Program-made: the position numbers and the translations under genes
In this document: piece by piece, positions 4,197 through 27,984 of the stretch
Layout of the letters: every line of letters starts with the position of its first letter
How positions within the stretch are numbered: the stretch's first letter is position 1
Origin: a virus
IMG/VR virus record: IMGVR_UViG_3300045988_116240
Strand: one strand, 5' to 3'
Length of the DNA: 64,000 nucleotides
The notes under the pieces: generated by a model
What the model saw: the letters and a program-made list of their open reading frames with translations, nothing else
What the model was told of the DNA's origin: nothing
The model's database searches: none

Positions 4197-4291
4197 GTAA
4201 AAGACATAGATCGTGTTGTATAACATGTGAAAGATCGCATCATATAGGATCGTTTTCGTGTTATAATAAGACAATTCATCATATTAGTCTA

Positions 4292-4779: not shown

Positions 4780-4829
4780 ATATAAGGCTGATAGACGGGT
4801 TGAGTCTTGTTTATCAGCCTTATATTTTT
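4780..4829 (+). terminator. intrinsic terminator-like hairpin
   Basis: Perfect 14-bp stem ATATAAGGCTGATA/TATCAGCCTTATAT (4780-4793 / 4812-4825), followed by TTTTT. Confidence 0.6.
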
Positions 4830-4869
4830 ATGTCATTATTAGCGTAAAATGATCTGAATGATATGTGAT

Positions 4870-4921
4870 GTTTACACTTTGTTTGCTATATTTGCACATG
4901 GCGTTTACACCGTGTTTACAC
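4870..4921 (+). repeat. three direct GTTTACAC repeats upstream of the integrase gene
   Basis: Copies at 4870-4877, 4903-4910 and 4914-4921. TATATTTG (-7 box-like) at 4887-4894. Confidence 0.45.
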
Positions 4922-4950
4922 CATAAATTTAATGTATAAAGTGTTGATAT

Positions 4951-9079: not shown

Positions 9080-12000
9080 TGTAAAACATTTATATGACGC
9101 TATGATTAGCCAAGGATATACGGGACTTGGCGATTTCTCTAATTTTGAGGGTAAGATGAAAGACTCTGGAAAGAGGAGAATGGTTTATGATTATTTGATA
9201 CAAGATGATTATTTCTCCGAGATAGGCGATTTCTCCAAGTTCGAGAGTGCCCTAGGGTATTCGCCCGCAGAGAGGAAAGATTACGTTTCTCAATCAAGCG
9301 TTAATCCTGCACCTATCGCTTTAAGACAGGAGGTTGACGTGCCTATGAAGGATCAATCGGAATACGTTAATCCGTGGACGAACTCACCTGATTACAATTT
9401 TGAGTCCTTGCGTAAAAAAGGAAAGATTGAGACCGCTACTCCTCCACCTCCTACGGAGTATGAGAAGGATTCTTCTTTCATGAATACTTGGGTAGGAGAC
9501 GCTATACAGAAACTTAACGCAGGAGGAGCCGATCTTGGTGCCGGTATATTTGGGGTCTTGGATAAGGCGGCTAAAGGGTTGGAATCCGCAACGGGAGGAC
9601 TGATCCCACGTGGCGGGGCATTCAAGGATATCTCAGATATATTTAAGGCTGATGCGGAGTTTTCCCGGGCAAGGTCAAACAGATACAATGGCAAGGATTT
9701 CACCGATCTTTGGAAAGAAGGGAATTATATGGGTGCCATAGGTGATATAGCCTTGCAAGGCGTAGAGTCGCTTCCGATGTCAATCGGGGCCATGGCCGCT
9801 ACAATGGCCGGAGCTCCAGCGGCCGGACTCGCAGGTATAGGGTCAATAGTAGCTAGCCAGAAATATGATGATCTTGACCAGAATAACCCAAACATGGGAG
9901 AGTTCGCAAAGGTATCTAACGCTATTCTTACAGGTACGGCAGAATCCTTGTCTGAGATGCTGGGCGCTGGCGTATCCAAGGCTTGGATGTCAACCTTATT
10001 CAAGACGTTAGGAAAGGAAAAGGCACAAGAGGCTATCAAGCGTGGCATAATGGGTAAGATGCAAGAGTTCTATAAAAAATTCGGTATGTTTTTCGAGCCT
10101 GTAAATGAAGGTATCGAAGAGGTATCTTCCACGCTAGCGGAGAATATAACGGATAAGATAACAGGTGCGGATCCGGAAAGGGATTTGACCGATGGTGTAT
10201 TGCAGAGTTTTGTCTATGGAATGGGAGGCGGCGCTTATTTTACTGGGGCCGGAGCGTTGGCTAAAGGTGCGCAATACGTAGCGGATAAAATAGGAGGCAA
10301 ACAGGCTCAGCAGCCTATCACCGATTCCAATGTAACAGATCAAGGCGTTGAAACTCCTCCTCTATTAACTAAGTCTAGGTTTGCCGAGGCAGAGGAAGAA
10401 GGTCGAAATATGACTGATCCGGGCGATATACGGACGGCGAGCAAAAAGATGGAAGAGACAAGGCTTTCCCTATCTGGAATGGTTCCGGGTTTGGCTAGTA
10501 CGATAGAAAGCTATGTGGATGATAAAGCTAGCGAGGCCCAAGTGATGAGTCTTCTTGATGGAGTTAATGCGGATGCCCGTCCGTTAGCCGAGGATTTCTA
10601 CGCTGATTATCTCAGGATATCCGGTTTGCAGGATCGTATAGGCGAGGAAATAGACAATGAGGTTGAAACTTACGTTGCCAATAATATTACTCCTTATGTT
10701 ACCACGAATCCTGATGGTCAGTCTATCGTTACCATGGCTACGCTTAGCGAGGGAAATGAGGAAAGACCTGTGTACGTTAGGAGTATCGAGGGAGATAAGG
10801 CCGTTATTTCCGATAACGGACAGGATCGGATGGTCTCGGTGAAAAGGTTGAGCGATATAGTAGAGCAAGATGCCGGTCATATGAGACGGACCTATGAGGA
10901 TCAATTATTGGCTAACCGCCAGTCCGAGCTTGACATGACCATGCATCATAATCCCAAGACGCAATTACCAAAGCCGGGGTTGATCGTATGGAACGGGGAT
11001 AATGCGTTTATCCTTCAAGGACAAGATGAGAACGGTGATTGGATCGCTCAACCTGCGGCTTATGATAGAGAAACCGGGCAGGTGACAGCCAAGAATGGCT
11101 CTTCTCCAGCAATGCCTATAACAGAGAATGAGATTCTTGATCTTCAAGATGCCATATATGACGCTCAACAAGTTAATGTGGTGTCGCCAGAGGATGATAA
11201 TGTTGCAAGTGCTGATGCCGAGATAACCTCTGCACCTCCCGTGGAAGATGCGATCAACCAGCCAACGAGTGAGATTGAGACGGAAGGTGCCATTGATCAG
11301 ATAGCACAACCTAGCAATGTGGAGAATCTTTCCATGGTTATGCGAGAAGATGGTACACCCGATTTCGTATCATCAGGAACGGATATGGCCTTGGATTTCC
11401 TCTATGATAAATATGGCGATAAGATGCCAAGGAAGATCGAGGTGACGAGAAAGTCTTTCGATGAAAGCCTTAAAAAAGCGTCTGATGCCTTGGAAAAGGC
11501 GCAAGAGGCATACGATGATGCCCCTATCGGAAAAGAGGATAAGCCTGAGGCCGCATTGATAAAAGCCCGACAAGAATATGAGGCGATCAAGGTCGAGGCT
11601 GATTTCTGGGCTAATCTTGATGATGATATCAAGGAGGCCAGCAAGAAGCCGGGTGATGTCATAGCGAAGGAGATCTCCGTGATAGGTGATCCTATGAGCG
11701 GAGAGGAGCTTGCGGCCATGATGCTGGCTAATGGGGCGATCAAATTGACACGTGACAGTTACAAGAAAGAGACCGGTGCCGGGAATAATGAGACAGCGAG
11801 GATGTTCGGACTGTTCGCCTCTCCGGAGAAAGGCGGTGTTAATATAGAGAGGGCGGGTGAGATATTGGAGCTTGCCGATAGGGAGAATGGCACTAACTTC
11901 TTCGATGAGAACGATACGAACGCCGGAAGGGACGCTATCATAGAGGTCTTGTCTTCCGCTCATACACGTGGAGACTTGATCGATTATGTCAAGAGGAACC

Positions 12001-15000
12001 GTGAGGCGATCGCTGAGCGTGAGAGACAGGCCGAGTACAACGCTTACGCTGAGTGGTGCGAGGAGAATTATCATATGTCCCCGGAAGAATACGAGGCGTA
12101 TGAGGAAAGCATGGTACGTGATTTCTCGGAGAAACAATTGACTGATGAGGAGCGAGGCGAGCTTGATTCGCAAATCGTGGATGAAATACAGGCCATAATT
12201 GACGAACAAAATGAAATAGACGCTATCTTAGCGCAAAATAAACCGATAGAAAATGAAAACATTGAAGGAAATGACGAAAGCGGAGGCGATGGCTTACGCG
12301 AGGGAGGCGGCGAGGTACTGCCAAGAGAACAACTTGATCAGACCGGGGGAACTGGAGAGGTTGAGGGAAGAGAATCGGCTGGCCCCGACATTGATCGCAC
12401 GGATGGAGCTACACAAGAAGGCTCATCAAGGGGACTAGTTCCTTTTGTCGCTCCTTCTCCAAAGGAGAATGAGACCCCATTGGACTATGCCGAGCGCATA
12501 GTTGAGGCTAAGAGATTGCACGAAGAGGAGCTAAAGGTTGATACCAATCCAACCGAGGCGCAGAAAGAGGCCGGCAATTACAAGAAAGGCCATATAAAGA
12601 TAAACGGTTTTGATGTCACCATAGAGCAGCCCGCCGGTTCCGTCCGTTCCGGTAAGGACGCTAGCGGAAAGGAGTGGTCGCAGGTCATGAATAACACTTA
12701 CGGTTACATTCGAGGTACTGAAAGTGTGGATGGTGATCATATAGACGTATTCCTAGGTCCGGATATGAATAGTGACATGGTGTATGTCGTGGATCAGGTG
12801 AATACTGATGGCTCATTCGATGAGCATAAGGTTATGATGGGATTCCCTTCCTTGGAAGACGCTAGGTCCGCTTACTTGTCAAACTATGAGGAGGGTTGGC
12901 AAGGGTTAGGCAACATTACCGGGGTCACGTTGGATGGGTTCAAGAAATGGATTGATTCCTCGACTCGCAAAACAAAGCCCTTCTATGAGTATAAGGGAAT
13001 TAAACAGGAGGAAAGCGATATTTCTAAAAATAATGATTCTGATAATTATAGCATTGTTTCCTCCCAATATACTACCAAGAAAGGAAAAGTTCTTGATATG
13101 TGGCTATTGAAGTTCGGTAATGAATTATCGAAGGAACAGCAACGTGCCGCCAAAGAGCTAGCCAAGGCTGAAAAGGGTTGGTATGACAGGGAACAGCGAG
13201 GTTTCATGATGCGTAGCGATGAAAGCGCAAGGCGGTTGGCTGATACCATTCTTGGCGATACCGATGCCGTAAGCGATGCGCAACCTATTTCTCTTGAAGA
13301 CACACGCAGGGTCGTAGAGCCTCAAAAGGTAAATGTAGAAAACCTTATTGGTGATATCAACGATAAGGGCAAAGCCAAATTGAGCGATCGTACCGTTACC
13401 CCTAGCGGTAACCGCCTTGTTACCGATGAACGGTATGCGGAACTCCGTGAGCGCATGCGCAAGAAACTAGGCGGTCAAATGAATATGGGTGTTGATCCTG
13501 AGATATTGGCGATAGGTACTGAAATGGCGGTTTATCATATAGAGAAAGGCTTGCGTAAGTTCTCTGATTACTCAAAGGCTATGATCGATGATCTAGGTGA
13601 CGCTATACGACCGTATCTTAAATCATTCTACAATGGAGCGAGGGATTTACCGGAAGTAGAAGAGAACGGATGGGATAAGGATATGACCACTTATGAGGAT
13701 GTCCGTTCGTTTGATGTAGCTAATTTTGATAAGCCAGTCCCGGATATAATGGATGCCGCTGAGACCGTGGTTAAAGAGACTGAGATTGCCGGACAAGCGA
13801 GTGCCGCGGAGAAAAAAATAAAAAATAGCCGGAAAAAGCGAACGGACAACAAGGACAAACCATTACCTTTGTATGGTAACGATTTATTCACTCCTAATAA
13901 TATTAAAGACAATGAGCAAGGAAATTCAAGAGCGGATCAAGGCGTGGGAAGAAAAGCACGGGAAGAGGATCGAGGATCTGAACGCGGAGGAGACCGTGGA
14001 GGCGTGCATGGAAGTGATGTGCTTGACACGGAGCGAGGCCGAGGAATACCTATCAGCGACAGCGACAAGCGGCCTGTTGTAAGGAATCAAAACAATTTCA
14101 GCTTCCCGGAGAAAGGTATTGAGCTTCCTTCCGGTGATATATCCAAGCTAAAAGCCAATATTGAGGCGATAGAAACGCTGAAAGACGTAGAGGACGGCCA
14201 AGGAAAACCTACCCCGGAACAACAAGCCAAGATGTCAAGGTACGTTGGATGGGGAGGTTTGGCCGAAGCCTTGAACGAAGGCAAATACAACGCACGTGAC
14301 AACAATTGGACTAAGGATCGAAATTGGAATGATAAGTATCTACGTTATTATGAGAAACTAAAATCCTTATTAAGTAAAGAAGAGTTCGACAGTGCCGTCC
14401 GTTCCACGACAACCTCTCATTATACCCCGTCCGAGGTCGTGGAAAGCTTATGGGGAATAACGGAGAAACTTGGATTCAAGGGTGGCAATATCAGTGAACC
14501 CGCTATGGGTATAGGCAACATAATCGGTATGATGCCTAGGTCTATATCTGAAAACTCAAGTATAAGTGGGTTCGAGATAGATAGTTTATCCGGTCGTATG
14601 GCAAAGGCTTTATATCCTGACGCTAATATAAAGGTACAAGGATATGAGAAAGCGTTTTCTCCAAACTCGAAAGACTTAGTTATCACCAACGTCCCATTCG
14701 GGAAAAACGCTCCATATGATAAGGTTTTAGATAAGCAATTCAGGAAGAAACTTGGTTCCTCTTATAATCTCCATAATTATTTTATCCTAAAGGGGCTTCT
14801 GGAATTGAAAGAAGGTGGTCTCGGCGTATTCGTCACGTCCTCGGCTACGATGGATGGGGCCGATAGTAAGTTCCGTGAGTACGTGAGTGGGAACGGTTAT
14901 GATCTGGTCGGAGCTATCCGATTGCCTAATGACGCTTTCCAGAAAGGGGCCGGCACGAGTGTCACGGCCGACATCGTTATATTCCGTAAAAGAAAGTATG

Positions 15001-18000
15001 GGGAACCTTCGAATGGGATAGGGTTCGCTACTACAACGCAAATAGGTGAAGGAACTTATATGGAGGACGGGGATAAAAGGAGCAAGCCTATCATGGTTAA
15101 CGAGTATTTCTCCAATCATCCCGATATGATGTTAGGTGATATGATGACTGCTTATGACGCTGGTAGCGGAGGTCTATATAGTGGAGCGTCCCAGACATTG
15201 AAAGCCAAACCCGGGGCCGATTTAAGCAAGGAGCTATTTAACGCTATTGATAACTTACCAAAGAATATCCTATCAGGTGTTGTAGAGACTAAAGGGCCGG
15301 AGGTTGTGGGTGACTCCACTTTGAAAGATGGTACTATTACCGTCCAGAATGGCAATGTCTTTGTTTTAGATGGGGACTCGTTAAAACCGATTAAGGCAAA
15401 TCCTACGTTCGTTCATAATGGTAAGACCCGGAAAATAGCGGATGCGGTAAATGATTACAATGATATAAAGAAAAATCTATACGATCTTATCCATGATGAG
15501 CAAACAAAGGGTGTGGATCCCGAGCCCGCGAGGAAAAGGCTAAACAAAGTATATGATGCTTTCGTGTCCAAATATGGGACACTTAACAGGAACAAGGCTT
15601 TGGACGATATTTTCGCCGAGGATGTTGAGCATGGATTACCCTTCTCTTTGGAAACCGTTAGAAGGGTACCTTCCACGACCGGAAAATCTATGGTATGGGA
15701 AGTCTCGAAAGCGGATGGTATCTTGAATAAGCGTGTAAGTTATCCATTCGAGCTACCGACAAAAGCGGATAATGTCTTGGATGCCGTCAATATAAGCAAG
15801 TCATATAAAGGTAATATTGATATACCTTATATCTCGGAGATAACGGGTATGGATGAGGTGAACGTGACAAACGAGATACTAGAGAAGGGAATTGCTTATA
15901 GGGATCCTGTTACCGGCAATATAATAGATAAGAGCGAATATCTCTCTGGAAACGTAAAAGATAAGTTGGTAGAGGCTAAGGCGGCCTTGGAAGATCATCC
16001 GGAGTTTCAAAAAAACGTGGATGACTTGGAAGCCGTACAGCCAGAACGTATACCCTATGGTGAGATAAGTTATCGACTGGGGACTACATGGATCCCGTCT
16101 GAGTTTATAAATAATTTCGCTGATAATGTACTGGGTATATCTTACGCCAACGCTAATTTTATCCCGGAGATCGGTGAGTATATTCTTGATAAGAGGGCGT
16201 TCATAACCGATTACGCTAAAGCCGGTCAATTCAAGACTGAGAGAATGGACGCTATAGACGTGTTCAAGGCCGCTCTTAACCAACGTAAACCCAAGGTTTA
16301 TGACGAGATTAAATATTATGAGGATGGTAAGCAGAAAACGAGAAGGGTCGTAAACGAGCAGGAGACACAGGCCGTTGCCGAGAAAATATCCGACATGTCC
16401 GATAAGTTCGTGGAGTATATTGATTCTAAAACGATGTTTCATGGTCGTATTGAGGACGTGTATAATGATAAATATAACAACTATGTACTAAAAAAGTATG
16501 ACAAACCGGTTTTTGAGCATTATCCTAACGCTAATAAGAATATAACACTTAGGGATCACCAGAGCAAGGCGGTGCAACGTTGTCTATCCGAGAGCACGTT
16601 ACTCGCTCACCAAGTCGGTACGGGAAAGACCTTTACCATGATTACGTCCGCTATGGAAATGAGACGGCTAGGTATAGCGAAGAAACCCATGATCGTTGTC
16701 CAAAACGCTACCCTAGAGGATTTCGTCCGTGACTTTTATAAACTGTATCCTTCCGCTAAGATTCTATCTCCGACAAAGGAGGAGCGTAACGCCGATAATA
16801 GGACAAGGCTGTTCAATCTTATAGCTACCGGAGATTTTGACGCTATCGTTGTCCCACAGTCATTCATGGCGTTTATCCCGGATAGCGAGGAAAGGAAAAA
16901 GGCATATATCCAAAAGCGTATAGATGATTTTGAGGAGGCTATCGATCGCATAGAAGACAAGGCTTTACAGGAGAGATTGAAAAGGGAGGCCAAGAGTATG
17001 CGTGATTCTCTGGAAGGTATAAAGAAAGGGAAAAACGTAAAGGGCAAGGCAAAGACAGCGGAGACTATCACGGCCAAGACGGAGCGTATTCTTGACAGGC
17101 GGACTGATAACGTCATGACGTTTGAGCAAATGGGTGTTGACGCTTTGTTCATTGACGAGGCGCATAATTATAAGAAGATCGGGTTTCCAAGCAAGATGTC
17201 GAACGTTAAAGGTATCGATACGAGCGCGTCACAAAGGGCTAATAGTATGTTGCTAAAAGCCCAATGGATATCTGAGAATAATGGTGGTCGAAACGTGGTT
17301 CTGGCAACCGGTACCCCTATCACTAATACAATGGCAGAGGTCTGGACTATGATGAATTTCGTGGCACCCGATATCCTAGACGCGTATAATATCAATAGCT
17401 TTGACGAGTTCGCTACCACTTTTGGAACGGTTGAGCCCTCATTGGAGTTTACCGCTACCGGTAACTTTAAGATAGCCGAGAGGTTCAAGAGCTATACGAA
17501 TGTCCCGGAGCTTATAAAGGCGTTCAGGAGCCATACGGACGTTGTCTTGACAGAGGATGTCAAGGAGTTCAAGGAAGACAAGAATATCCCTAAGTTGAAA
17601 GACAATAAGATGACCAATGTCATTGTCGAGAAGAACGAGGACTTGGAGGATGTCATGCAAACCCTTATCAAGGAATTAGAGGATTATAACAAATTGACAG
17701 GAAAAGAGAAGAAGGATAAGAGCGCGCTACCCTTGGTCGTGTTCAGCAAGGCTAAACAGGCTGCGATTGACCTTCGCTTGCTTAATCCTACATTTCCCGA
17801 CAATCCTGATAGCAAGACAAACAAGGTGGTCGATAACGTGTTGAGATTATATAAGGAGAGCGATAAGGACAAAGGCACGCAACTTATATTCTGCGATAGT
17901 TATCAATCCCCTTCTGAGACTCCAAAAATGGATTTATTCGATGTCGATTTATCTGTTCCTCAGTTTAATTTGTACAATGATATAAAGGAAAAGCTTATCA

Positions 18001-21000
18001 AGGGAGGTATTCCGTCTAATCAGATAGCTATCGTTGGCAATTATGAGGGAGAAAGGAGAAACGCCTTGTTCGATAAGGTCCGTAATGGGGATGTGCGCAT
18101 TCTTATTGGAAGCACGGAGAAAATGGGAGTGGGTGTCAACGTGCAAGATCGTCTATTCGCCCTGCATCATATTGACGCTCCAATCAGGCCTATGGATTTT
18201 GAGCAACGCAACGGTCGTATCTTACGACAAGGAAACTTATACGCCACATGGGATAAACCGGTGAACATCGTCACATATGGCGTTAAAGGTACCCTTGACG
18301 CTACCGCCTATGACAGGCTTCGTATAAAACAAAACTTCATCAACCAAATGATGAAAGGCGATATATCGTCTCGTGTAATGGAGGAGCAAGACGATAGTGA
18401 TCCGTCTGGAATGACATTTAGTGAGATGGCGGCGACGTTATCAGGAGATAAGACCGCCCAACTGCTGTTTGTGGCACAGAACAAGTTAAAGAAATTGCAA
18501 AACTCCAAGAGGAGCGATCTTAACAGTAAGTCTTCCATGCGTGACTCTATATCTAACTCCAAACTTAGGATACAAGAATACAACAGCCGGAAGGATATCA
18601 TGGAAAGGAACGCCAATATCGTAAAAGAAAACTTCCCTGATGGGGTTGAGTCCGTGACTGTTAAAGGCAATACTTTCAGCGATGGTATATCGAATGAGCT
18701 TACGCCCATTATTGATGATTACTATGATAGATATACGCTTGACAGAAACACCCCTCCTCTGAAAATCAGTCTCAATGGAGGAAAAGGCGAGGCAATCGTG
18801 CATTTCAATGAAGGTATGATGGTCTATAGCTTATATTTAGGAAAGGAAAAACTGGTTGAGAATCGTGATTTTAGCGGCGGCAAGGGTTTGATGGCTAGCA
18901 TTGACAGGCAGTTGGGGATTCCCGCTAAATCCGTCTCAGATATAGCCGCTAAAATAAAGGCAGAGGAAAACAAGATAGCGGGATTAGAGGAAGCCGTTAA
19001 GAAACCGTGGGGAAAAGAGGATGAACTTAATGCGGCTCAGGCAGAGGTTAATGATCTGCAGAGACAATTAGTTGAAAAAGCTAAAGCTGAGGATATTCAG
19101 TTAGAATCAACTCTTGACGTTGATGGTACGTTGGTAAAAGAGGAAGGAGAGACTCGATTTCGATTCATGGGAGTAGATACAACTAATAATCAGGATAATG
19201 TAAGTTCTATTGAATCCTCAATCAACGATTGGTCAAACAAGCTTAATACCCCTGTCAGGGTAATCCATGACGTGGACGATATAAACGATACGGATGAGAA
19301 TATGTTGGCCCGTAAGAGAGATTCCAAAGGCTGGTATGATACTTCTACCGGGGAGATAGTCATAGTATCACCTAATTCCACGTCCGTAGGTGACGCTCAA
19401 AGGACTTTCCTCCATGAGGTGGTAGGGCATCATGGGTTACGTGAGCTATTCAGGGATGATTTCGATACTTTCCTTGATAACGTGTATCGGAACGCCAACG
19501 AGGATATCCGGAAAAATATCATTGATCGGACTAAAGGCAATCCTCTTAACTTGCGTGAGGCTACAGAGGAATACCTCGCTGAATTAGCGGAACGTGGTTT
19601 CGATAACAAGGCCGAGCGTTCGTTATGGGAAAAGATCAAGGACTCTTTTCTTGATATGTTGAGAAAGGCAGGTATTAGTCTTGATTTCAAGTTATCGGAT
19701 AATGACCTCCGTTATATTCTCTGGAGAAGCTATAAGAACTTGGAGCAAGGAAACTTGATGGATGTGGCCGAGGATATCGTGATGAGAAATAGATTAAGTC
19801 TTAACAATATAAATTTGAACGAAAATGGATCAATCGCAAGAGATATTGAACCTGAAAAAGGAAAACAACCTTCTGAAACAAAAGGTACTGGAAGGGAACT
19901 CGAGACAATCGATGGCGTTGATGAGAACGGAAACGAAAGTGAACGAGACCATATCGACAAACCAAGGGGAGTTGAAAACGCTATTGACGGAACTGAAAAC
20001 GCAACTGACCGAAATGGAAAAAAGACTGACGGCCAAGTTGACAACGATGGAGACCAACTTGACGGAGGAGATACGGGCGATAGGAACGGAAGTGTCCGGG
20101 ATGGAATCGGCGGTGATCGGACTGTCATCGGACGTGCAGGATCTGAAAACAAGGGTAGAGGCGTTGGAGAAAGCGTAAGGGAAAAGACGGATGATTTCTC
20201 TTTCGCCGAGAAAACAATCCGTTTTAGGGAGAACGCGCGGAATGAGTCGGTATTGTTCGCTGATAATGATATCCAAGTAGTAGAGAAACAGGTAGGTTCC
20301 GCCAAAGATCAATATGAGCGTACCCTATCTACATCGTCCTATCAATTTCAGGAGGCGTTTCAGGATTCTATGCTAGGGCTTAAAACATTGCAGGATGCCG
20401 TGGCAAAGGCAACGAGGAGTCGTATATTGGATTATGAGAACGCTTATATGGCCGAGAATGCCCTTTCCTCCGTTAATGAAGCGGAGTTCAACGCTTATAG
20501 GAAAGCGGCTTTCGAGCCTATCTTAAAAGCGATCTCACGTTTGGAAAAGATGGGATCCACCATTGATGAGATAAGGGATTACCTTATAACCAAGCATGGT
20601 ATTGAGCGTAACAGGGAAATGGCCGTTAAACGAGTGTTGTCACAAAACTCGGAAACATATAAATCCCTGCTTGACGAGTATATCGGGAGAAGGAATGAGA
20701 TACGTGAGAACGGTAGGTCTTGGGAAGAGCAGCAATCAGAAATGGATAGGCTTTCCGAGGAATACGGAGCTAATCTTTCTGATGATTTCAGCGGATTCAC
20801 GTCCATGTATCCTAACGAGGATAACACGGGGTATGATCCGGATTCCGCAAGGAGATACGTATTGGATTACGAGTCAAGATATGATACATCGGAATTATCG
20901 GCCTCTGTCAAAAGAGCCACTGACGCTATATTGGCAAAGCAACGGGATAGCGGGCTTATGAGCCAAAATACGTTTGATTCGATCAGCGATATGTATCAGT

Positions 21001-23288
21001 TCTATGTGCCTTTGCGTGGATGGGAGGAGACTACGGCAGATGAGGTTTACGCTTATCTTACATCCGAAAGCCAAACGTTCAACGCCCCTATAAAGACTGT
21101 CGTTGGGCGAAAGAGCAAGGCTGACGATCCTATAGCGACGATCGCTAATATGGCAGAGAGCGGAATCATGCAAGGGAATAGGAACTTGATGAAGCAAAAG
21201 TTTTTGACAATGGTACAAAACCATAAGACGGATCTCGTGAGCGTAAGCGAAATGTGGGTTCGTCTTGACGAGGCTTCCGGTGAGTGGATCGCCGTTTTCC
21301 CGGATATACCATCTAACGCCAATCCGGAACAGGTGGAGTCTATCGTGGAATCTTTCAACAAACGCATGGAGGAGCTATCCAATGAAAAAGGATCTAATGT
21401 TAGACGTTCAAGGGATGCTATAGGGATACCTTACAAGATATTGCCAAAGGACTTGAAGGAGCATCAAGTGATCGTAAAGAGAGCCGGCAAAGAATACTTA
21501 CTTACCATAAACGGGAACCCAAGGGCCGCTCAAGCGTTGAACGGGCTTACAAACCCGGATAATACGAAAGGATGGTTTGGTACCGTGGAGAGATACGCCG
21601 GATGGCTGAATCGAAACTTGGCGGCTAATTTTACGACACGTAACCCGAATTTCATGGTAAGTAACTTCCTCCGTGACGCTCTTTATTCGAATACTACCGT
21701 ATGGGTCAAGGAAAGTCCTGTATACGCATGGAAGTTCAATAAGAATTTCGCTATGGTAAACCCGATCAATATGTATCGTCTGGTCAAGGGGTATGAGAAC
21801 GGTACGTTGGATATGAGCGATCCATTGAATAAGGCATATCATGATTTTGTAATGAGAGGAGGAGAGACCGGATACACCAATTTGAGAGACGTGGAAGCCA
21901 AGAAGAAGGCGATCCAAAAAGAACTTCAATACTCCAAGCAAAAGGTATCTATCGGAAAGGCTTTGAAAATACTAGGCGAATGGATGGACTTGTTCAATAA
22001 GAGCGTAGAGAATTGCGCTAGGTTCGCCGCGTTCATTACTTCTAGGGAAATGGGGCGGAGCATGGATAAATCCATTTATGACGCTAAGGAGATATCCGTA
22101 AACTTCAATAAGAAAGGGGCGGGTTCAAAATTCTTGAATACTGAGGGGCAGACCAAGATAGGTAACGCTAGCGCTTTCACGTCCGGATTGTCAAGATCCA
22201 TGTATGTGTTTTGGAACGCTGGTGTACAAGGTATGTATAATTTCGGAAGGCTAGCCAAGGATAATCCCAAGAAATTCTTGGGGTTAGCGTCCTCTTTCTA
22301 TTTACTTGGCACTATCATGCCTATGATCGCTGCCGCTTTTGGGGATGATGAAGATGATGATTACTACGATCTTCCGGAATACGTGAGACGTAATAATATC
22401 TGTTTCCGTAACGGTGGAGGAAATTGGATTACAATTCCTATGCCCATAGAGTTAAGGGCTATATATGGACTAGGAGAAATGTCTTCTGGAATAGTTTCCG
22501 GAAAGGAGAAGTATACCGATAAAAAGATGGCCATGAAGATAGCGGAGCAAATGTCACAGGTTCTTCCTTTGGACATGATGGAGGGAGGTGGAGGATTCTC
22601 CGCTTTCGTCCCAAGCTCGGTAAAGCCATTGATTGAGGCCGGAGATAACAAGGATTGGACAGGTTTGCCTTTATATAAGGATAACGATTTCAACAAGGGT
22701 ATGCCTGAATGGACGAAGGCTTTCAAGAGCGTGGATCCCGCTATATTGGCGATGACTGAATATGCCAATAAGTTGACCGGTGGAGATAAATACACTATCG
22801 GTGCGGTTAATCTGAACCCGGCCATTATAGAGCATATATTGGACGGCTATTTCGGAGGTATCGAGGCTACACGTGCGCAGATGGTCAAATCCGCTGAAAC
22901 CGCTTGGGGTAGTCGTGATTTTGACTGGAGGAATATCCCTGTCGGGAACCGTCTTATAAAAAGTGGTGATGAGCGGACGAAAAAGAAAGCCATAGATAAC
23001 GCTTATTATGAGAATTTGGAGGAAATGGATAAGATCGGACAAAGATTGAGAGGATATCGTAAAGAATTGTCTAATCCACAGAACGATAGTTTTGATATAG
23101 CAGAGTATCAGAAAAAATTGAATGATCTTATGATGAGCGATGAATATCGTGGATATGTAGAGTTTAATAATCTTAACAAATTGTATCAATCAATGGGTGA
23201 GTATTTGAAGAAGGTAGATGATGAAAGATTGGAAATGGAGTTATACGATTTGAAAGCTATGATGAATGAGATAGCTAATGGTAAATAG
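9024..23288 (+). CDS. giant polyvalent protein (4,754 aa): PPase-like + N6-adenine MTase + SF2 helicase + zincin-like motif, with hydrophobic Gly-rich termini; candidate packaged/ejected anti-restriction protein (DarB-like logic)
   Basis: Single uninterrupted ORF. Motifs are listed in the sub-features below. An alternative in-frame start at ATG 9069 (MDSNVKHLY) overlaps the upstream stop. Confidence 0.9.
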   Translation: MKEEQKIQTKNTAGFMDSNVKHLYDAMISQGYTGLGDFSNFEGKMKDSGKRRMVYDYLIQDDYFSEIGDFSKFESALGYSPAERKDYVSQSSVNPAPIALRQEVDVPMKDQSEYVNPWTNSPDYNFESLRKKGKIETATPPPPTEYEKDSSFMNTWVGDAIQKLNAGGADLGAGIFGVLDKAAKGLESATGGLIPRGGAFKDISDIFKADAEFSRARSNRYNGKDFTDLWKEGNYMGAIGDIALQGVESLPMSIGAMAATMAGAPAAGLAGIGSIVASQKYDDLDQNNPNMGEFAKVSNAILTGTAESLSEMLGAGVSKAWMSTLFKTLGKEKAQEAIKRGIMGKMQEFYKKFGMFFEPVNEGIEEVSSTLAENITDKITGADPERDLTDGVLQSFVYGMGGGAYFTGAGALAKGAQYVADKIGGKQAQQPITDSNVTDQGVETPPLLTKSRFAEAEEEGRNMTDPGDIRTASKKMEETRLSLSGMVPGLASTIESYVDDKASEAQVMSLLDGVNADARPLAEDFYADYLRISGLQDRIGEEIDNEVETYVANNITPYVTTNPDGQSIVTMATLSEGNEERPVYVRSIEGDKAVISDNGQDRMVSVKRLSDIVEQDAGHMRRTYEDQLLANRQSELDMTMHHNPKTQLPKPGLIVWNGDNAFILQGQDENGDWIAQPAAYDRETGQVTAKNGSSPAMPITENEILDLQDAIYDAQQVNVVSPEDDNVASADAEITSAPPVEDAINQPTSEIETEGAIDQIAQPSNVENLSMVMREDGTPDFVSSGTDMALDFLYDKYGDKMPRKIEVTRKSFDESLKKASDALEKAQEAYDDAPIGKEDKPEAALIKARQEYEAIKVEADFWANLDDDIKEASKKPGDVIAKEISVIGDPMSGEELAAMMLANGAIKLTRDSYKKETGAGNNETARMFGLFASPEKGGVNIERAGEILELADRENGTNFFDENDTNAGRDAIIEVLSSAHTRGDLIDYVKRNREAIAERERQAEYNAYAEWCEENYHMSPEEYEAYEESMVRDFSEKQLTDEERGELDSQIVDEIQAIIDEQNEIDAILAQNKPIENENIEGNDESGGDGLREGGGEVLPREQLDQTGGTGEVEGRESAGPDIDRTDGATQEGSSRGLVPFVAPSPKENETPLDYAERIVEAKRLHEEELKVDTNPTEAQKEAGNYKKGHIKINGFDVTIEQPAGSVRSGKDASGKEWSQVMNNTYGYIRGTESVDGDHIDVFLGPDMNSDMVYVVDQVNTDGSFDEHKVMMGFPSLEDARSAYLSNYEEGWQGLGNITGVTLDGFKKWIDSSTRKTKPFYEYKGIKQEESDISKNNDSDNYSIVSSQYTTKKGKVLDMWLLKFGNELSKEQQRAAKELAKAEKGWYDREQRGFMMRSDESARRLADTILGDTDAVSDAQPISLEDTRRVVEPQKVNVENLIGDINDKGKAKLSDRTVTPSGNRLVTDERYAELRERMRKKLGGQMNMGVDPEILAIGTEMAVYHIEKGLRKFSDYSKAMIDDLGDAIRPYLKSFYNGARDLPEVEENGWDKDMTTYEDVRSFDVANFDKPVPDIMDAAETVVKETEIAGQASAAEKKIKNSRKKRTDNKDKPLPLYGNDLFTPNNIKDNEQGNSRADQGVGRKAREEDRGSERGGDRGGVHGSDVLDTERGRGIPISDSDKRPVVRNQNNFSFPEKGIELPSGDISKLKANIEAIETLKDVEDGQGKPTPEQQAKMSRYVGWGGLAEALNEGKYNARDNNWTKDRNWNDKYLRYYEKLKSLLSKEEFDSAVRSTTTSHYTPSEVVESLWGITEKLGFKGGNISEPAMGIGNIIGMMPRSISENSSISGFEIDSLSGRMAKALYPDANIKVQGYEKAFSPNSKDLVITNVPFGKNAPYDKVLDKQFRKKLGSSYNLHNYFILKGLLELKEGGLGVFVTSSATMDGADSKFREYVSGNGYDLVGAIRLPNDAFQKGAGTSVTADIVIFRKRKYGEPSNGIGFATTTQIGEGTYMEDGDKRSKPIMVNEYFSNHPDMMLGDMMTAYDAGSGGLYSGASQTLKAKPGADLSKELFNAIDNLPKNILSGVVETKGPEVVGDSTLKDGTITVQNGNVFVLDGDSLKPIKANPTFVHNGKTRKIADAVNDYNDIKKNLYDLIHDEQTKGVDPEPARKRLNKVYDAFVSKYGTLNRNKALDDIFAEDVEHGLPFSLETVRRVPSTTGKSMVWEVSKADGILNKRVSYPFELPTKADNVLDAVNISKSYKGNIDIPYISEITGMDEVNVTNEILEKGIAYRDPVTGNIIDKSEYLSGNVKDKLVEAKAALEDHPEFQKNVDDLEAVQPERIPYGEISYRLGTTWIPSEFINNFADNVLGISYANANFIPEIGEYILDKRAFITDYAKAGQFKTERMDAIDVFKAALNQRKPKVYDEIKYYEDGKQKTRRVVNEQETQAVAEKISDMSDKFVEYIDSKTMFHGRIEDVYNDKYNNYVLKKYDKPVFEHYPNANKNITLRDHQSKAVQRCLSESTLLAHQVGTGKTFTMITSAMEMRRLGIAKKPMIVVQNATLEDFVRDFYKLYPSAKILSPTKEERNADNRTRLFNLIATGDFDAIVVPQSFMAFIPDSEERKKAYIQKRIDDFEEAIDRIEDKALQERLKREAKSMRDSLEGIKKGKNVKGKAKTAETITAKTERILDRRTDNVMTFEQMGVDALFIDEAHNYKKIGFPSKMSNVKGIDTSASQRANSMLLKAQWISENNGGRNVVLATGTPITNTMAEVWTMMNFVAPDILDAYNINSFDEFATTFGTVEPSLEFTATGNFKIAERFKSYTNVPELIKAFRSHTDVVLTEDVKEFKEDKNIPKLKDNKMTNVIVEKNEDLEDVMQTLIKELEDYNKLTGKEKKDKSALPLVVFSKAKQAAIDLRLLNPTFPDNPDSKTNKVVDNVLRLYKESDKDKGTQLIFCDSYQSPSETPKMDLFDVDLSVPQFNLYNDIKEKLIKGGIPSNQIAIVGNYEGERRNALFDKVRNGDVRILIGSTEKMGVGVNVQDRLFALHHIDAPIRPMDFEQRNGRILRQGNLYATWDKPVNIVTYGVKGTLDATAYDRLRIKQNFINQMMKGDISSRVMEEQDDSDPSGMTFSEMAATLSGDKTAQLLFVAQNKLKKLQNSKRSDLNSKSSMRDSISNSKLRIQEYNSRKDIMERNANIVKENFPDGVESVTVKGNTFSDGISNELTPIIDDYYDRYTLDRNTPPLKISLNGGKGEAIVHFNEGMMVYSLYLGKEKLVENRDFSGGKGLMASIDRQLGIPAKSVSDIAAKIKAEENKIAGLEEAVKKPWGKEDELNAAQAEVNDLQRQLVEKAKAEDIQLESTLDVDGTLVKEEGETRFRFMGVDTTNNQDNVSSIESSINDWSNKLNTPVRVIHDVDDINDTDENMLARKRDSKGWYDTSTGEIVIVSPNSTSVGDAQRTFLHEVVGHHGLRELFRDDFDTFLDNVYRNANEDIRKNIIDRTKGNPLNLREATEEYLAELAERGFDNKAERSLWEKIKDSFLDMLRKAGISLDFKLSDNDLRYILWRSYKNLEQGNLMDVAEDIVMRNRLSLNNINLNENGSIARDIEPEKGKQPSETKGTGRELETIDGVDENGNESERDHIDKPRGVENAIDGTENATDRNGKKTDGQVDNDGDQLDGGDTGDRNGSVRDGIGGDRTVIGRAGSENKGRGVGESVREKTDDFSFAEKTIRFRENARNESVLFADNDIQVVEKQVGSAKDQYERTLSTSSYQFQEAFQDSMLGLKTLQDAVAKATRSRILDYENAYMAENALSSVNEAEFNAYRKAAFEPILKAISRLEKMGSTIDEIRDYLITKHGIERNREMAVKRVLSQNSETYKSLLDEYIGRRNEIRENGRSWEEQQSEMDRLSEEYGANLSDDFSGFTSMYPNEDNTGYDPDSARRYVLDYESRYDTSELSASVKRATDAILAKQRDSGLMSQNTFDSISDMYQFYVPLRGWEETTADEVYAYLTSESQTFNAPIKTVVGRKSKADDPIATIANMAESGIMQGNRNLMKQKFLTMVQNHKTDLVSVSEMWVRLDEASGEWIAVFPDIPSNANPEQVESIVESFNKRMEELSNEKGSNVRRSRDAIGIPYKILPKDLKEHQVIVKRAGKEYLLTINGNPRAAQALNGLTNPDNTKGWFGTVERYAGWLNRNLAANFTTRNPNFMVSNFLRDALYSNTTVWVKESPVYAWKFNKNFAMVNPINMYRLVKGYENGTLDMSDPLNKAYHDFVMRGGETGYTNLRDVEAKKKAIQKELQYSKQKVSIGKALKILGEWMDLFNKSVENCARFAAFITSREMGRSMDKSIYDAKEISVNFNKKGAGSKFLNTEGQTKIGNASAFTSGLSRSMYVFWNAGVQGMYNFGRLAKDNPKKFLGLASSFYLLGTIMPMIAAAFGDDEDDDYYDLPEYVRRNNICFRNGGGNWITIPMPIELRAIYGLGEMSSGIVSGKEKYTDKKMAMKIAEQMSQVLPLDMMEGGGGFSAFVPSSVKPLIEAGDNKDWTGLPLYKDNDFNKGMPEWTKAFKSVDPAILAMTEYANKLTGGDKYTIGAVNLNPAIIEHILDGYFGGIEATRAQMVKSAETAWGSRDFDWRNIPVGNRLIKSGDERTKKKAIDNAYYENLEEMDKIGQRLRGYRKELSNPQNDSFDIAEYQKKLNDLMMSDEYRGYVEFNNLNKLYQSMGEYLKKVDDERLEMELYDLKAMMNEIANGK
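9520..10265 (+). other. Gly/Ala-rich hydrophobic segment of the giant protein (membrane-active?)
   Basis: GADLGAGIFGVL, SLPMSIGAMAATMAGAPAAGLAGIGSIVA, YGMGGGAYFTGAGALAKGA. Confidence 0.5.
12570..12900 (+). other. inorganic-pyrophosphatase-like module of the giant protein
   Basis: NNTYGYIRGTESVDGDHIDVFLGPD compared with E. coli Ppa [24 protein letters not shown] (recalled from memory). Confidence 0.5.
14100..15130 (+). other. N6-adenine DNA methyltransferase module of the giant protein
   Basis: Motif I-like ISEPAMGIGNIIG (about 14490-14528); motif IV-like VITNVPFGKN (about 14679-14708). Confidence 0.75.
16540..18300 (+). other. SF2 (SNF2/DEAD-like) helicase module of the giant protein
   Basis: AHQVGTGKTFTM (Walker A), FIDEAHNYKK (DEAH), LATGTPITN (motif III), QRNGRILRQGN (motif VI). 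Confidence 0.8.
19409..19435 (+). other. HExxH zincin-like metallopeptidase motif in the giant protein
   Basis: TFLHEVVGHHGLRELF. Confidence 0.5.
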
Positions 23289-24570: not shown

Positions 24571-24646
24571 AACCGTACTTGCTCTGCTAACGAAGTATAT
24601 TTCCTATGGGATGAAGCTATTGATCGTTTTGAGGTATCTAAAATAG

Positions 24647-24687
24647 AAAACTCCCCAAATCCTCACGGACAAGGGAGTTTTTATTAT
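24647..24687. terminator. bidirectional terminator-like hairpin with TCCTCACGGA loop
   Basis: 9-bp stem AAAACTCCC/GGGAGTTTT; loop CAAATCCTCACGGACAA. T-run follows on the plus strand, and a T-rich tract follows on the minus strand. Confidence 0.6.
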
Positions 24688-25109
24688 TTAACTATAATCT
24701 ATATGAATGGTTTTCAGACAACCTTAAACGATCCGATTCTCACGAACTAGAGCGTTTGTAATATCTAAATCCATATCTAAACAAAGACATACTTAATCAT
24801 CATTGCCGATCCTCCCGGAATAGCAACGGTGGGTATATCCGTCTTAAAATGCTTCCCAATACCACCCAAGGGAAGCGGGAAATATTTATTCAAACTATAT
24901 TTTATGCCATAAGGAAAGGAGTGTGCCCCCATCCTCCAAAGCTATCCCCTTGACATAAATATACCTCTGGTTCTCACGAAAGAGCGGTATGACATTGATA
25001 AAATTATTTTATGAATACAACCTAGTGTAATATCTTTAAGTAATGACTCCAGTCCATCACGGATGAGAGCCATAAGGGGTTATAAATATATAACATACCA
25101 TATACGCAT

Positions 25110-25155
25110 AAAAAACGTGGCGCCGTCGCAACTACCAAGACCCGGCGTCCCCACG
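25110..25155 (-). terminator. minus-strand intrinsic terminator
   Basis: Minus strand reads CGTGGGGACGCCG...CGGCGCCACG followed by TTTTTT (A-run 25110-25115 on the plus strand). Confidence 0.55.
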
Positions 25156-25157
25156 CC

Positions 25158-25253
25158 AACATAACAGGTAGTAAGCAACGGCCCACGTCTTATATATAGA
25201 TTATATATACAAATAACGTGGGCGTATTGTTGCTATCGGCTCCCTGTTATGTT
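25158..25253. repeat. 96-nt imperfect inverted repeat / long hairpin with an AT-rich centre
   Basis: Outer arms AACATAACAGG/CCTGTTATGTT (perfect 11 bp); inner arms CCCACGT/ACGTGGG and GCAAC/GTTGC; centre TTATATATAGATTATATATA. Confidence 0.6.
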
Positions 25254-25436
25254 TATAAATTTGGGGAATTTAGGTCTTTATAGGAGACGATATCTTTAAC
25301 GCCACAATGTGTGTCACGTCTTATATTCTAATCAGTGACTACGCAAATATACTCTATTTATTTTATATTAGTAAAAAATAAGTCGTATTTTATTTATCTA
25401 ATATTGATTTTTACAGGGGAAACGTTCATGCGCACG

Positions 25437-27551
25437 CTATAAACTCGACTCATTTTTGGGATATGAATCAAGATATCCCGTTGATTCTTCTTTGATTATA
25501 GAAGGCTTAGGCATATCCTCTGATATGAGCGCTCCTATCATGTCTGTCATCAATATATCGTCGTGATTGCCACGACCGGGAATATTACCGTAACTACCGT
25601 CCGGACGTTGCTCGTATTTTGACGCTTCCTTGTACATACGCTCATCCGGGTCTATAAACATATCGTCCTCGAACGCCACTATGAAATTATCCACCATGTC
25701 CTGCTTGGTCTTCTTGTTGGTCTGGAAGCCTATCTTCTTGTATATGCCGTTCCTTATGTCCTCGGGATCCGTCGCCGCTCGCATGTAAAGATTAGGGTAG
25801 ATATCCTCTATCTTTTTCAGTATGCCACGAATATGATCGCCTTCCTCCACGAACTCGGATGCCTCTGATTTTTTCTTATCAAACGTATTGCTCTCGAAGG
25901 CGAGAAGGGCGTTCTTGTAGTATCTGGCGATCTTGACGGCTTTGTAGGCGAGCCAGTCATATCGTATATGACCGTGCCATCTGGCTACCACCTCCGGCTT
26001 TCCTCCGCTAAATCGTAAATTCCATCTGTTTATCACTGTTATACATGAGGGGTCTGAGTTCTTGCTACGTCCACCGACATCGACAATAACAAGATACTCG
26101 TTGGATGTCCTTGTATCATCGGGCCTCTTCCAGATTCTCAACAGGCCGTTCGGATTCTTGGTGAGAATTATCCTCTTGGTCTTCTCTGATTGGGATATGT
26201 CGCCAATGAACTCCGGGGGTGATACGTATCTTTCCCGCATTACCTCGATCGTATAGATATTGAACACGAGATTACCGGAATACTTGAAACACTCGACATC
26301 ATCGGATGGTGCCTCGGATGCCATCGAGGCGTGATCATGAAACGAGGCCCTTTTCTTGATATACCATTTGATGTGCTCCAGCGTAGCTCCTTTTTCCCAT
26401 AGAGACCATAGATACTGTCCCGGCTCGCTATTGTCATTAGGGGAGGTCGTGACATCCCTTCCCTCTAATAGATCCAGTATGAAAAGCCGGGTCTCTTTCT
26501 TGTCCTTGAATCTTATCATGTCGTTCTCGATAAAGAAGAACGGTATGAATAGCGCCTTACGGGATGAAGTGCCCTCCTTGGCCATTTGGTACTCATCATA
26601 GAAATAACCGGCCATGCCATTAGCTGTAGACTCGGAGATCTCCATGGTCAACGGTCTCTCCAATATATTCGAGTCTATGTTTGTTATAACCTGCTCCGCC
26701 GATTTGCCATCCGTTGTTTTCCAGTAGGCTACCTCCGAGAAGTGAGCCATGGCATAGTCCATACCACGTGTTGACTCGAAATTCTCATAAGATGCCACGG
26801 TTATCACGTTATCACGTACCTTGTTCCCGGACGGGTCGGTGATTATGGAGTCGGACGCCGAATGCTCGTAAGGGGCGAATTGTAGCTTGTCAACACCATA
26901 TATAAATCCCGGGATATTATCGAGAACCTTTTTATACATGGCCTTGATACGTTTGGCGGTATCTTTCGTCTGGGCTATAATTACGGAATACCATCCTTCC
27001 ATGACGAATAGCTGTATCCACGCCATATAAAGCTGTACCAAGGTGGAACCTCCCCATTGCCGGGCTTTCAATAATATTATACGGATCGGGACTCCCTTAT
27101 GCCTCATTTCCTCCAGAACGGATAGCACGTAACGTTGGGCGTAATTAAGCTCGAAGGGGATCATTTCTCCCGCCTCTTTCGACTTGATCTTAAATAACGA
27201 GAAAAAGGCGAAGGAGGGGTCTCTCGAGCAACGAGCCCAAAATAGCATGTTGGCCACGTCCTCCTCATTTATCCCATCTGAATCCGGGTACAGCTCGTTG
27301 AACCTTATCGTGTAGTCCTTTATGGAACCAGCTTTCAGAACATCTTGATACAGATCGTTCTTGAAAACCTCCTCGGTAAGCCACTGCACCCTTATGGGGT
27401 AATCATCTATGACAACCCTATGGCTATGCCCCTCCATTCCACGCCCCGTGAATTGGTCGTGCGTGCCGAATATATTTTTCAGCCTCTTGTTATTCTCGGC
27501 CAATATAGACTCAACCTCTTCCGTGAACGCTAATTTTCTGTATGACTCCAT
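25437..27551 (-). CDS. terL: terminase large subunit
   Basis: 704 aa. LLKARQWGGSTLV is a TerL-type Walker A variant. Size and position next to the head genes fit. Confidence 0.85.
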   Translation of the reverse strand: MESYRKLAFTEEVESILAENNKRLKNIFGTHDQFTGRGMEGHSHRVVIDDYPIRVQWLTEEVFKNDLYQDVLKAGSIKDYTIRFNELYPDSDGINEEDVANMLFWARCSRDPSFAFFSLFKIKSKEAGEMIPFELNYAQRYVLSVLEEMRHKGVPIRIILLKARQWGGSTLVQLYMAWIQLFVMEGWYSVIIAQTKDTAKRIKAMYKKVLDNIPGFIYGVDKLQFAPYEHSASDSIITDPSGNKVRDNVITVASYENFESTRGMDYAMAHFSEVAYWKTTDGKSAEQVITNIDSNILERPLTMEISESTANGMAGYFYDEYQMAKEGTSSRKALFIPFFFIENDMIRFKDKKETRLFILDLLEGRDVTTSPNDNSEPGQYLWSLWEKGATLEHIKWYIKKRASFHDHASMASEAPSDDVECFKYSGNLVFNIYTIEVMRERYVSPPEFIGDISQSEKTKRIILTKNPNGLLRIWKRPDDTRTSNEYLVIVDVGGRSKNSDPSCITVINRWNLRFSGGKPEVVARWHGHIRYDWLAYKAVKIARYYKNALLAFESNTFDKKKSEASEFVEEGDHIRGILKKIEDIYPNLYMRAATDPEDIRNGIYKKIGFQTNKKTKQDMVDNFIVAFEDDMFIDPDERMYKEASKYEQRPDGSYGNIPGRGNHDDILMTDMIGALISEDMPKPSIIKEESTGYLDSYPKNESSL

Positions 27552-27984
27552 AGATGATATAGGCTATTAGGAATGACAGCAAGTGTATCCTCCAGTTGAA
27601 TAAGGGGATAAACGCCATGACGATATTGCTCAATATTATTCTCCAAAGGCTTAGTTTATAGGCGTGATATCTGCGAGCGTAACATCCCATGATAAATCCG
27701 GACATGCCGCATGTAGGAACCGGCAATGAGGCTAGTGGTACGAACGAGGCCAAGACGCAAGACACGTAACCGATCAGGCATGTTTTCACACGAGGCTTAA
27801 ACTGGAATAAGGCGATAAGATTTAATGATAAATGAAAGATGTTCGCGTGGGTGAACGTGTAAAGGAAATGGTCGTATGGTATGGAATTGGTATCGAAATA
27901 GAAATGTTTACCTGCGAGTTGGAGTATGACGCTTGTCAAGGCGATTATTAATGAAGGAATCAGTCTTTTTAGCTTACCTTCCAT
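27511..27984 (-). CDS. rhomboid-like intramembrane serine protease candidate (minimal, 157 aa)
   Basis: HANIFHLSLN (HxxxxHxxxN), CGMSGFIMG (GxSG) and a downstream RIHLL histidine, with GlpG-like order and spacing. Overlaps the terL start by 41 nt. Confidence 0.55.
   Translation of the reverse strand: MEGKLKRLIPSLIIALTSVILQLAGKHFYFDTNSIPYDHFLYTFTHANIFHLSLNLIALFQFKPRVKTCLIGYVSCVLASFVPLASLPVPTCGMSGFIMGCYARRYHAYKLSLWRIILSNIVMAFIPLFNWRIHLLSFLIAYIIYGVIQKISVHGRG

Follow-up and report, generated by a model that had tools for sequence, protein, structure and literature searches.

Prophage-borne small RNAs and anti-small RNAs are exemplified by DicF and IpeX of enterobacterial prophages and by AgvB and AsxR of the Shiga toxin (Stx) prophages of enterohaemorrhagic Escherichia coli (EHEC), and phage morons, as described by Hendrix and colleagues, are autonomous promoter-gene-terminator inserts between phage genes. 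Here we describe a conserved non-coding cassette of 724 nucleotides (nt), at positions 24640-25363 of the viral record IMGVR_UViG_3300045988_116240 (64,000 nt; hereafter the window), which lies next to terL, the gene for the large terminase subunit, in a temperate Bacteroidales phage of the gut. We read it, tentatively, as an accessory, moron-like cassette of temperate Bacteroidales phages whose leftward transcription would yield two or three small RNAs. Like DicF, IpeX, AgvB and AsxR, it comprises non-coding units in the accessory regions of temperate phages, with variable presence and predicted intrinsic terminators at the ends. Those RNAs, however, are single molecules of 50-150 nt with demonstrated targets, whereas the cassette is a predicted 724-nt cluster. 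To our knowledge, Bacteroidales lack Hfq and ProQ. With morons the cassette has in common that it is a sharp-edged insert between conserved genes, present in some close relatives and absent from others, with a terminator at its end; it differs from them in having no protein-coding gene and a weakly predicted promoter of its own. It probably represents a new family within a known kind, the phage-borne regulatory RNA genes.

A scan against Rfam 15, proposed in the first-pass annotation of the window, assigned the locus to no known family: there was no match at gathering thresholds in the tract between terL and the gene that converges on it (24571-25436), and scans of the whole window and of five variant loci gave nothing at E ≤ 3. 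The best sub-threshold match, to BTnc231 (RF04180), reached 24 bits where the gathering score is 80.4, and covered 24787-24647 on the minus strand. Positions 24787-24640, read on the same strand, align end to end with the model structure of BTnc231, with which they share a U/A-rich single-stranded 5' part, a CGUGAG-capped hairpin, a CGUGAG-capped terminator and the 9-mer GAUUUAGAU. Homology was nevertheless rejected, as an nhmmer profile (HMM) built from 87 genuine BTnc231 loci of Bacteroides had no match in the tract, its best match in the window lying elsewhere with E > 3. Because this profile was blank and the original match disappeared in larger searches, the similarity is regarded as one of layout and not of membership.

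The FopS and GibS families (RF04319 and RF04182) are recognized by the R1 seed GUGUUUUUCAUGGUAUUAGAUUU and a terminator, a combination that was not found in the tract. The 5' region of a FopS/GibS-like small RNA (sRNA) is located elsewhere in the window, at 57969-57852 on the minus strand (32.2 bits against a gathering score of 56; E 0.0064 in 601 nt). It opens with 23 nt, GUGUUUUUCAUGGUAUUAGAUUU, that match the R1 seed of the Rfam FopS consensus without a mismatch and precede a CCCCGCCGUCCGUGAGGAUAUGCGGGG hairpin, and the equivalent region of Bacteroides phage BF1-TP2 is 93% identical. Because of this seed at 57969, the phage can be said to carry a host-type sRNA sequence; FopS has been recorded in a Bacteroides phage before (PMC11697453).

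The large structured RNAs GOLLD, ROOL, HEARO, OLE and raiA resemble the cassette in length, in their many hairpins with GNRA loops and, for many GOLLD and ROOL RNAs, in being phage-borne. The cassette differs from all five in the lack of a covariance-model match, in its predicted internal terminator and in the natural separability of its parts. RNA-based, ColE1-like replication origins have been described for extrachromosomal prophages of mycobacteriophages (PMC7157519). These are transcribed regions of about 0.7 kb in temperate phages, likewise protein-free and structured, and one carrier of the cassette is labelled as a circular plasmid. Unlike those phages, the phage of the window has an integrase gene (4951-6435), which together with terL and a 4754-aa LPD38/DarB-like giant gene marks it as a temperate Bacteroidales phage, and it is presumably integrated in chromosomal contigs of 160-410 kb; the cassette is, moreover, dispensable to close relatives. 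A literature search returned nothing on BF1-TP2 and no description of the cassette tract.

A discrete, modular unit without protein-coding content

The cassette lies in an 866-nt gap between a plus-strand gene for a 132-aa protein, which ends at 24570, and terL on the minus strand (25437-27551), whose stop codon begins at 25437. No credible gene is found between them. The first-pass annotation had described this tract as free of open reading frames (ORFs), and indeed no ORF in 24571-25436 is conserved, but its longest ORF had been underestimated at 43 codons; ORFs of 54 aa (25022-25186, minus strand, GTG start) and 51 aa (24777-24932, minus strand, ATG start) are present. Each of the short ORFs is intact in 4 to 26 of the 37 unique homologues, and none in all 37. 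The homologues differ by indels of 5, 10 and 39 nt, and since indels in the tract are not multiples of three, a decayed gene or a functional small ORF becomes less plausible. The two longest ORFs have no match in Pfam or PHROGs, and no small ORF that is conserved or clearly hydrophobic, as would be typical of a type I toxin-antitoxin system, was found across the variants of the tract. A tblastn comparison with about 2000 frames from relatives without the element gave self-matches only, with no significant match to the element; on this ground and for want of a conserved ORF, a decayed gene is rejected.

Similarity searches delimit a conserved unit (24640-25363) that is narrower than the tract first noted, and its ends are the breakpoints of similarity to other phages. 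The AT-rich spacer that separates the cassette from the terL stop codon (25364-25436) is not common to the other gene contexts described below, and the spacer 3' of the 132-aa gene (24571-24639) is outside the unit. As the search of related phage and metagenome contigs showed, the unit is well conserved, being found whole at 87-99% identity in more than 100 public contigs. Exact-pattern scans retrieved about 65 gut viral contigs from IMG/VR carrying the whole unit (87-99% identity) and 36 human-gut metagenome contigs, several of which are 160-410 kb long and presumably represent integrated prophages. No copy was found in a scan of species-representative genomes, and no element was detected, by nhmmer or by a GNRA-hairpin scan, at terL-based loci of 35-59% identity.

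The copy in BF1-TP2 is 96.3% identical to that of the window, over 24640-25363 only; the terL proteins of the two phages are 42% identical, and there is no comparable match elsewhere in the surrounding 8 kb. A copy of 92% identity is found in a Parabacteroides distasonis record together with the same phage genes. In both records the cassette region is without annotation. Compared over their whole genomes, the window phage and BF1-TP2 prove to be colinear mosaics in which many patches, the element among them, are 84-99% identical. The contrast with the terL proteins is therefore tempered as proof of special mobility, while the patch containing the element stops exactly at the edges of the non-coding unit. 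The P. distasonis record (L002, NZ_OY725834.1) was deposited as 'plasmid 89', a circular, non-mobilizable plasmid of 218,767 bp. It contains the giant LPD38 gene of this phage, its J-domain gene, the cassette and the terminase; instead of a conventional plasmid, it may represent a phage, a phage-plasmid or a phage concatemer.

The full 724 nt are kept at 90-96% identity in three gene contexts. In the window and in the P. distasonis record, the cassette is found downstream of terL. In BF1-TP2 its neighbours are gp66 and a J-domain gene, and in three further loci (L010, L025 and L003) it is flanked on one side by a divergent virion structural gene and on the other by an Ant-like gene in convergent orientation. 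The left and right flank types assort independently. The J-domain gene of BF1-TP2 has a canonical TAATTTTG -7 box of its own, from which a promoter can be predicted, and may itself be a classic moron.

Presence of the cassette varies among close relatives, at a gene boundary, as is the case for morons. A phage whose terL is 98% identical (L078) has no element and holds an unrelated 490-aa ORF in its place, which identifies the site as a swap locus for accessory genes; relatives have at this site a J-domain gene, a 252-aa together with a 132-aa gene, or the 490-aa ORF. Phage BKO1-TP3 lacks the element and has no gap at the corresponding place. Partial copies are also found: 25354-25011 are deleted between two ATAAAATAA repeats in one phage (L083), just 24897-24640 are retained in another (L124), and an inner block is missing from a third (L155). 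The only match of the 490-aa ORF (8195-9667 of the L078 locus, minus strand) is a weak one to the PHROG 'membrane associated protein (moron)'.

Several kinds of mobile or variable element were considered and rejected. About 90 copies that align over their full length are all colinear with the window, the others being truncated or internally deleted, which argues against an inverton. No terminal repeats borne by the element and no target duplication are common to the three contexts, as would be expected of a transposon or miniature inverted-repeat transposable element (MITE), and the only end-to-end inverted repeat sits in non-conserved flanking sequence. The template repeat of a diversity-generating retroelement (DGR) was dismissed, as the window contains no long repeat of the tract elsewhere.

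Hairpins, predicted terminators and sequence constraint

Read leftward on the minus strand, the unit begins with a candidate promoter that has a Bacteroides-type -7 box, TATATTTG, at its 5' edge (25344-25351) and could serve the first RNA. It is followed by a small 5' hairpin, GACGU.ACA...UGU.GCGUU (25298-25320), which is nearly invariant, with 1 unpaired cell in 42 variants. The most conserved part of the cassette, the A-core, is an imperfect hairpin or palindrome of 96 nt (25158-25253) built of a 9-bp base, GC stems of 5 and 7 bp, fixed internal loops and an AU-rich tip. Just outside it, a perfect -7 box on the plus strand (TAAATTTG, 25256-25263) is kept in 38 of the 42 variants. A predicted intrinsic terminator at 25110-25155 ends the 5' unit; its interrupted GC-rich stem, made up of CGUGG/CCACG and CGCCG/CGGCG with a 17-nt loop, precedes a run of 6-8 U.

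The second part of the cassette is a succession of smaller minus-strand hairpins. The first of these, AUGGCUCU..UCC-GUGAU-GGA..GGAGUCAU (25043-25073), contains TCCATCACGGA and lies in a strongly constrained stretch (25104-25011). The hairpin at 24961-24990 has the cap UUC-GUGA-GAA, a GNRA loop in the minus-strand reading, and shares TTCTCACGAA followed by AGAGCG with the hairpin AAACG...UUC-GUGA-GAA...CGUUU at 24726-24757, which has a GNRA-type cap as well. An optional 39-nt hairpin insert (24911-24949), missing from 12 of the 42 variants, occupies the loop of a 9-bp stem (24901-24909 with 24951-24959), and a G.U pair of this stem is replaced by G-C exactly in the variants without the insert. 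Downstream are a GCUUCCC/GGGAAGC hairpin (24851-24876), which has a loop of 12 nt and is trailed by AUUUU, and a hairpin with the GNRA-type cap UCC-GGGA-GGA (24803-24826). The 3' edge of the cassette is formed by a predicted bidirectional intrinsic terminator (24647-24682) with the stem AAAACUCCCC/GGGGAGUUUU and the tip CC-GUGA-GG. On both strands an A-run precedes this stem and a U-run follows it, and one CG-to-UA compensatory change is observed among the variants. A GC-rich stem-loop followed by a U-run, the hallmark of an intrinsic terminator, can thus be read in the sequence at both 24647-24682 and 25110-25155.

Every hairpin listed in the first-pass annotation is present in the sequence. 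The recurrence of CACGTCTTATAT (at 25184 and 25315) and of CGTCTTA (at 24840, 25186 and 25317) was borne out, while ACGTGG/CCACG occurs four times and not five. The pseudoknot-like interaction suggested for the 24851-24876 hairpin, whose loop would pair with 24828-24836, is possible but imperfect, with 7 of 9 positions paired or 5 + 3 with a bulge. Inverted-repeat pairs of 13 and 12 nt join the 5' and 3' parts of the cassette by long-range complementarity.

The minimum free energy (MFE) of the minus strand, -220.7 kcal/mol (z -6.4), is 37 kcal/mol more stable than that of the plus strand, -183.9 kcal/mol (z -5.6). In a dinucleotide-shuffle control the element had a z-score of -5.7, compared with +1.7 to -3.9 for 13 other 710-nt segments of the same genome, and was the most extreme of the 14 segments tested. 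Four of the 28 YYCGNRAGRR sites of the window fall within this 0.7-kb unit, all on the minus strand. Their caps are GUGA in three cases and GGGA in one, a fifth hairpin has a GUGAU loop, and the plus-strand reading is UCAC.

Constraint was assessed as the mean pairwise divergence among 46 genomes with near-identical terL. Divergence in terL amounts to 3.84% at third codon positions and 0.24% at first and second positions. The small 5' hairpin, linker and long hairpin (25326-25158) diverge by 0.74%, 25104-25011 by 0.98% and 24897-24788 by 1.35%, with higher values for 25010-24898 (2.4%) and 24787-24640 (2.7%). Divergence in the best-conserved parts is thus 4-5 times lower than at third codon positions of terL. 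As parts of the tract evolve more slowly than mostly synonymous sites, the comparison argues for purifying selection on non-coding sequence, with the proviso that recombination could blur it.

Proposed transcripts and competing explanations

Non-coding RNA is the interpretation best supported by the discrete conserved unit, the terminators, the GNRA loops on one strand and the purifying selection. Of the proposal that the tract encodes one or more large structured non-coding RNAs, the RNA itself is the better-supported part, and a single large ornate molecule is not supported. Transcription would proceed leftward on the minus strand, in the same sense as terL. A first RNA of about 225 nt (RNA-A), which would contain the long imperfect hairpin, would start at about 25340 and end in the U-run at about 25110; one or two more RNAs would cover the stretch between about 25080 and the terminator at 24647-24682. 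The latter hairpin would also halt the converging plus-strand operon. In an infected or lysogenic cell, the RNAs would act in trans and could be base-pairing regulators or protein-binding decoys, like other prophage-borne small RNAs. The longest complementarity to the phage's own genes found in a search for trans-antisense pairing was 14 nt.

An RNA structure is plausible, and the minus strand is probably the transcribed one. The GUGA loop is changed to GCGA in one variant, which keeps the GNRA form, and many polymorphisms of the tract are G.U-compatible on the minus strand. When scored on the MFE folds, pair types were kept in 40 and broken in 39 cases on the minus strand, and kept in 21 and broken in 37 on the plus strand, counts that point clearly in neither direction.

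Several observations weigh against this picture. Covariation is limited to 2 double-sided pairs among 182, in a test of low power because the copies are at least 87% identical. A strand-symmetric test counted 17 changes G.U-compatible on the minus strand versus 12 on the plus strand, with 11 mismatches, and was not significant, and several common variants break tip pairs on the minus strand (UUC to UCC in 9 sequences). Where a moron has a promoter and a terminator of its own, the cassette has a predicted terminator and, at its 5' edge, a -7 box that is TATATTTG in the window but TATATTCG in 39 of the 42 variants and canonical in 3; the internal promoter candidates are imperfect too. Within the most conserved part, the perfect TAAATTTG box reads on the plus strand, so that some of the constraint could be exerted at the DNA level or on the plus strand; this box may drive a rightward antisense or leader transcript. 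Finally, no homologue below about 87% identity was found in the scans of viral contigs, metagenomes and species-representative genomes, which makes the family a narrow one. With these points taken into account, an array of small RNAs remains our tentative preference.

A more specific and rather unlikely proposal is that the cassette is a regulatory-RNA array or a decoy for a host RNA-binding protein such as RbpB, and would rewire Bacteroidales host expression during lysogeny. Its targets might be, for example, surface polysaccharide-utilisation or receptor genes, and it would work alongside the FopS-like sRNA of the same phage. The invariant 170-nt long-hairpin domain would then constitute a new protein- or RNA-recognition module.

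The alternative that survives best, which we still consider unlikely, is an element acting in cis at the DNA level, such as promoters and operators of neighbouring accessory or structural genes, a packaging start beside the terminase gene, an origin, or a linker at which modules preferentially recombine. The hairpins, which are inverted repeats, fold well on both strands, the outcome of the strand test is compatible with this explanation, and both edges of the cassette are recombination junctions. In L010, the plus-strand TAAATTTG box of the most conserved part is directed towards a virion structural gene whose start is about 20-70 nt past the edge of the cassette. GC-rich stems with loops of 4-17 nt and trailing U-runs, however, have the anatomy of RNA hairpins and terminators and not of operators. 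The tract adjoins terL in the window but not in BF1-TP2, and the cassette is missing from, or partly deleted in, otherwise near-identical phages, a loss that an essential pac, cos or ori site would hardly allow. A packaging site should be kept by all phages that share the terminase, and L078 has no element and L083 no 5' half. The iterons, AT-rich unwinding region and adjacent replication genes expected of a replication origin were not found together at the locus: the tract has no iteron-type direct repeats, only short two-copy repeats, and the replication-type genes are distant from it (the initiator is gp16 in BF1-TP2). The ends of the BF1-TP2 record, which may be arbitrary, fall outside the cassette. 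The packaging or replication element that had been suggested for the tract is accordingly unlikely as an essential function, given the absence of the cassette from L078 and BKO1-TP3 and its three gene contexts.

It is improbable that the tract is largely non-functional junction DNA, in which terminators and leftovers of recombination have piled up where genes converge in a hypervariable accessory region and are carried along by linkage. The locus is a swap site with differing genes among relatives, parts of the tract are naturally deleted, and similar GUGA-tipped hairpins elsewhere in the genome resemble ordinary terminators. Leftovers of this kind would not be expected to show, in their best-conserved parts, a divergence 4-5 times lower than that of third codon positions in terL, to be retained whole, at 90-96% identity, in three unrelated contexts, or to have the most extreme fold z-score of the 14 segments.

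We regard as highly doubtful a single ornate structured RNA of about 700 nt with one architecture, of the GOLLD or ROOL kind. Size, hairpin density, the several GNRA loops and phage carriage would fit, as would the 13-nt and 12-nt complementarities that join the 5' and 3' parts, but these long-range helices have no covariation support among the variants and Rfam gave no match. The hairpin with U6-8 at 25110-25155 would interrupt such a molecule, and variants with the 3' half only, with the last 257 nt only or without inner blocks persist in intact phages. Least probable by far are the remains of a protein gene, a small-ORF locus or a type I toxin-antitoxin system. The short ORFs of 43-54 aa and a single weak antitoxin-type match in Rfam (E ~6) could be cited in favour, but no ORF is intact across the variants, the indels are out of frame and the searches for a remnant, which the first-pass annotation had considered, were blank in tblastn and, for the two longest ORFs, in Pfam and PHROGs.

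Neighbouring features and significance

A 12-nt tip, GUCCGUGAGGAU, is common to hairpins at 815-845, 24658-24669 and 57911-57922, the last of which follows the FopS-like seed. The GUCCGUGAGGAU-tipped hairpin looks like a recurrent terminator design of this phage. The first of the three, on the minus strand downstream of tRNA-Met, is the hairpin GGUCUCCGUCCGUGAGGAUAUGAGGCC with a U-rich tail.

A tRNA-like sequence is located at 57700-57893 on the minus strand. It has a class II-looking 5' part, GGUGGUAUGGCGGAAUUGGUAGACGC, and a 3' part with a perfect T-arm and acceptor, GCGGGUUCGAGUCCCGCUACCAUCA, split by about 137 nt; the insert in BF1-TP2 is about 52 nt long and unrelated, and a hypothetical protein (gp8) is annotated over this locus in that phage. 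ARAGORN reported no tRNA at the locus in either phage, and the Rfam tRNA model scored 15 bits. The sequence could be an intron-containing or otherwise interrupted tRNA. At 63861-63928 (minus strand), near the end of the window, ARAGORN reported a 'tRNA-???' with the two-base anticodon (ac), which is odd or degenerate.

Further features of the window concern its coding regions and gaps. A single ORF of 4754 aa (9024-23288, plus strand) is annotated in relatives as an LPD38-domain or DarB-like antirestriction polyvalent protein, and is a mosaic with respect to BF1-TP2, with patches at 84-97%. Immediately upstream of terL, a 157-aa gene (27511-27984, minus strand) matches a Rhomboid domain (E 1e-4), at a place where the small terminase subunit is usually expected; BF1-TP2 and BKO1-TP3 are arranged alike. 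A second large gene-free gap, of 755 nt (4196-4951), lies upstream of the integrase gene; it, too, is more strongly folded than expected by chance (z -3.9) and is a possible attP region.

The human gut harbours abundant temperate Bacteroidales phages, whose effects on their hosts are poorly known. RNA regulation in Bacteroides is only now being mapped, with GibS, FopS and RbpB as examples. Should the cassette consist only of terminators and junction DNA, it would still mark a recombination-prone accessory locus that annotators have left blank. As a conserved, constrained, protein-free, exchanged and easily deletable unit, it offers a candidate case, in this phylum, of host regulation by phage RNA. 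The proposal of leftward-transcribed small RNAs is directly testable in BF1-TP2, a carrier of the cassette that has been cultured.

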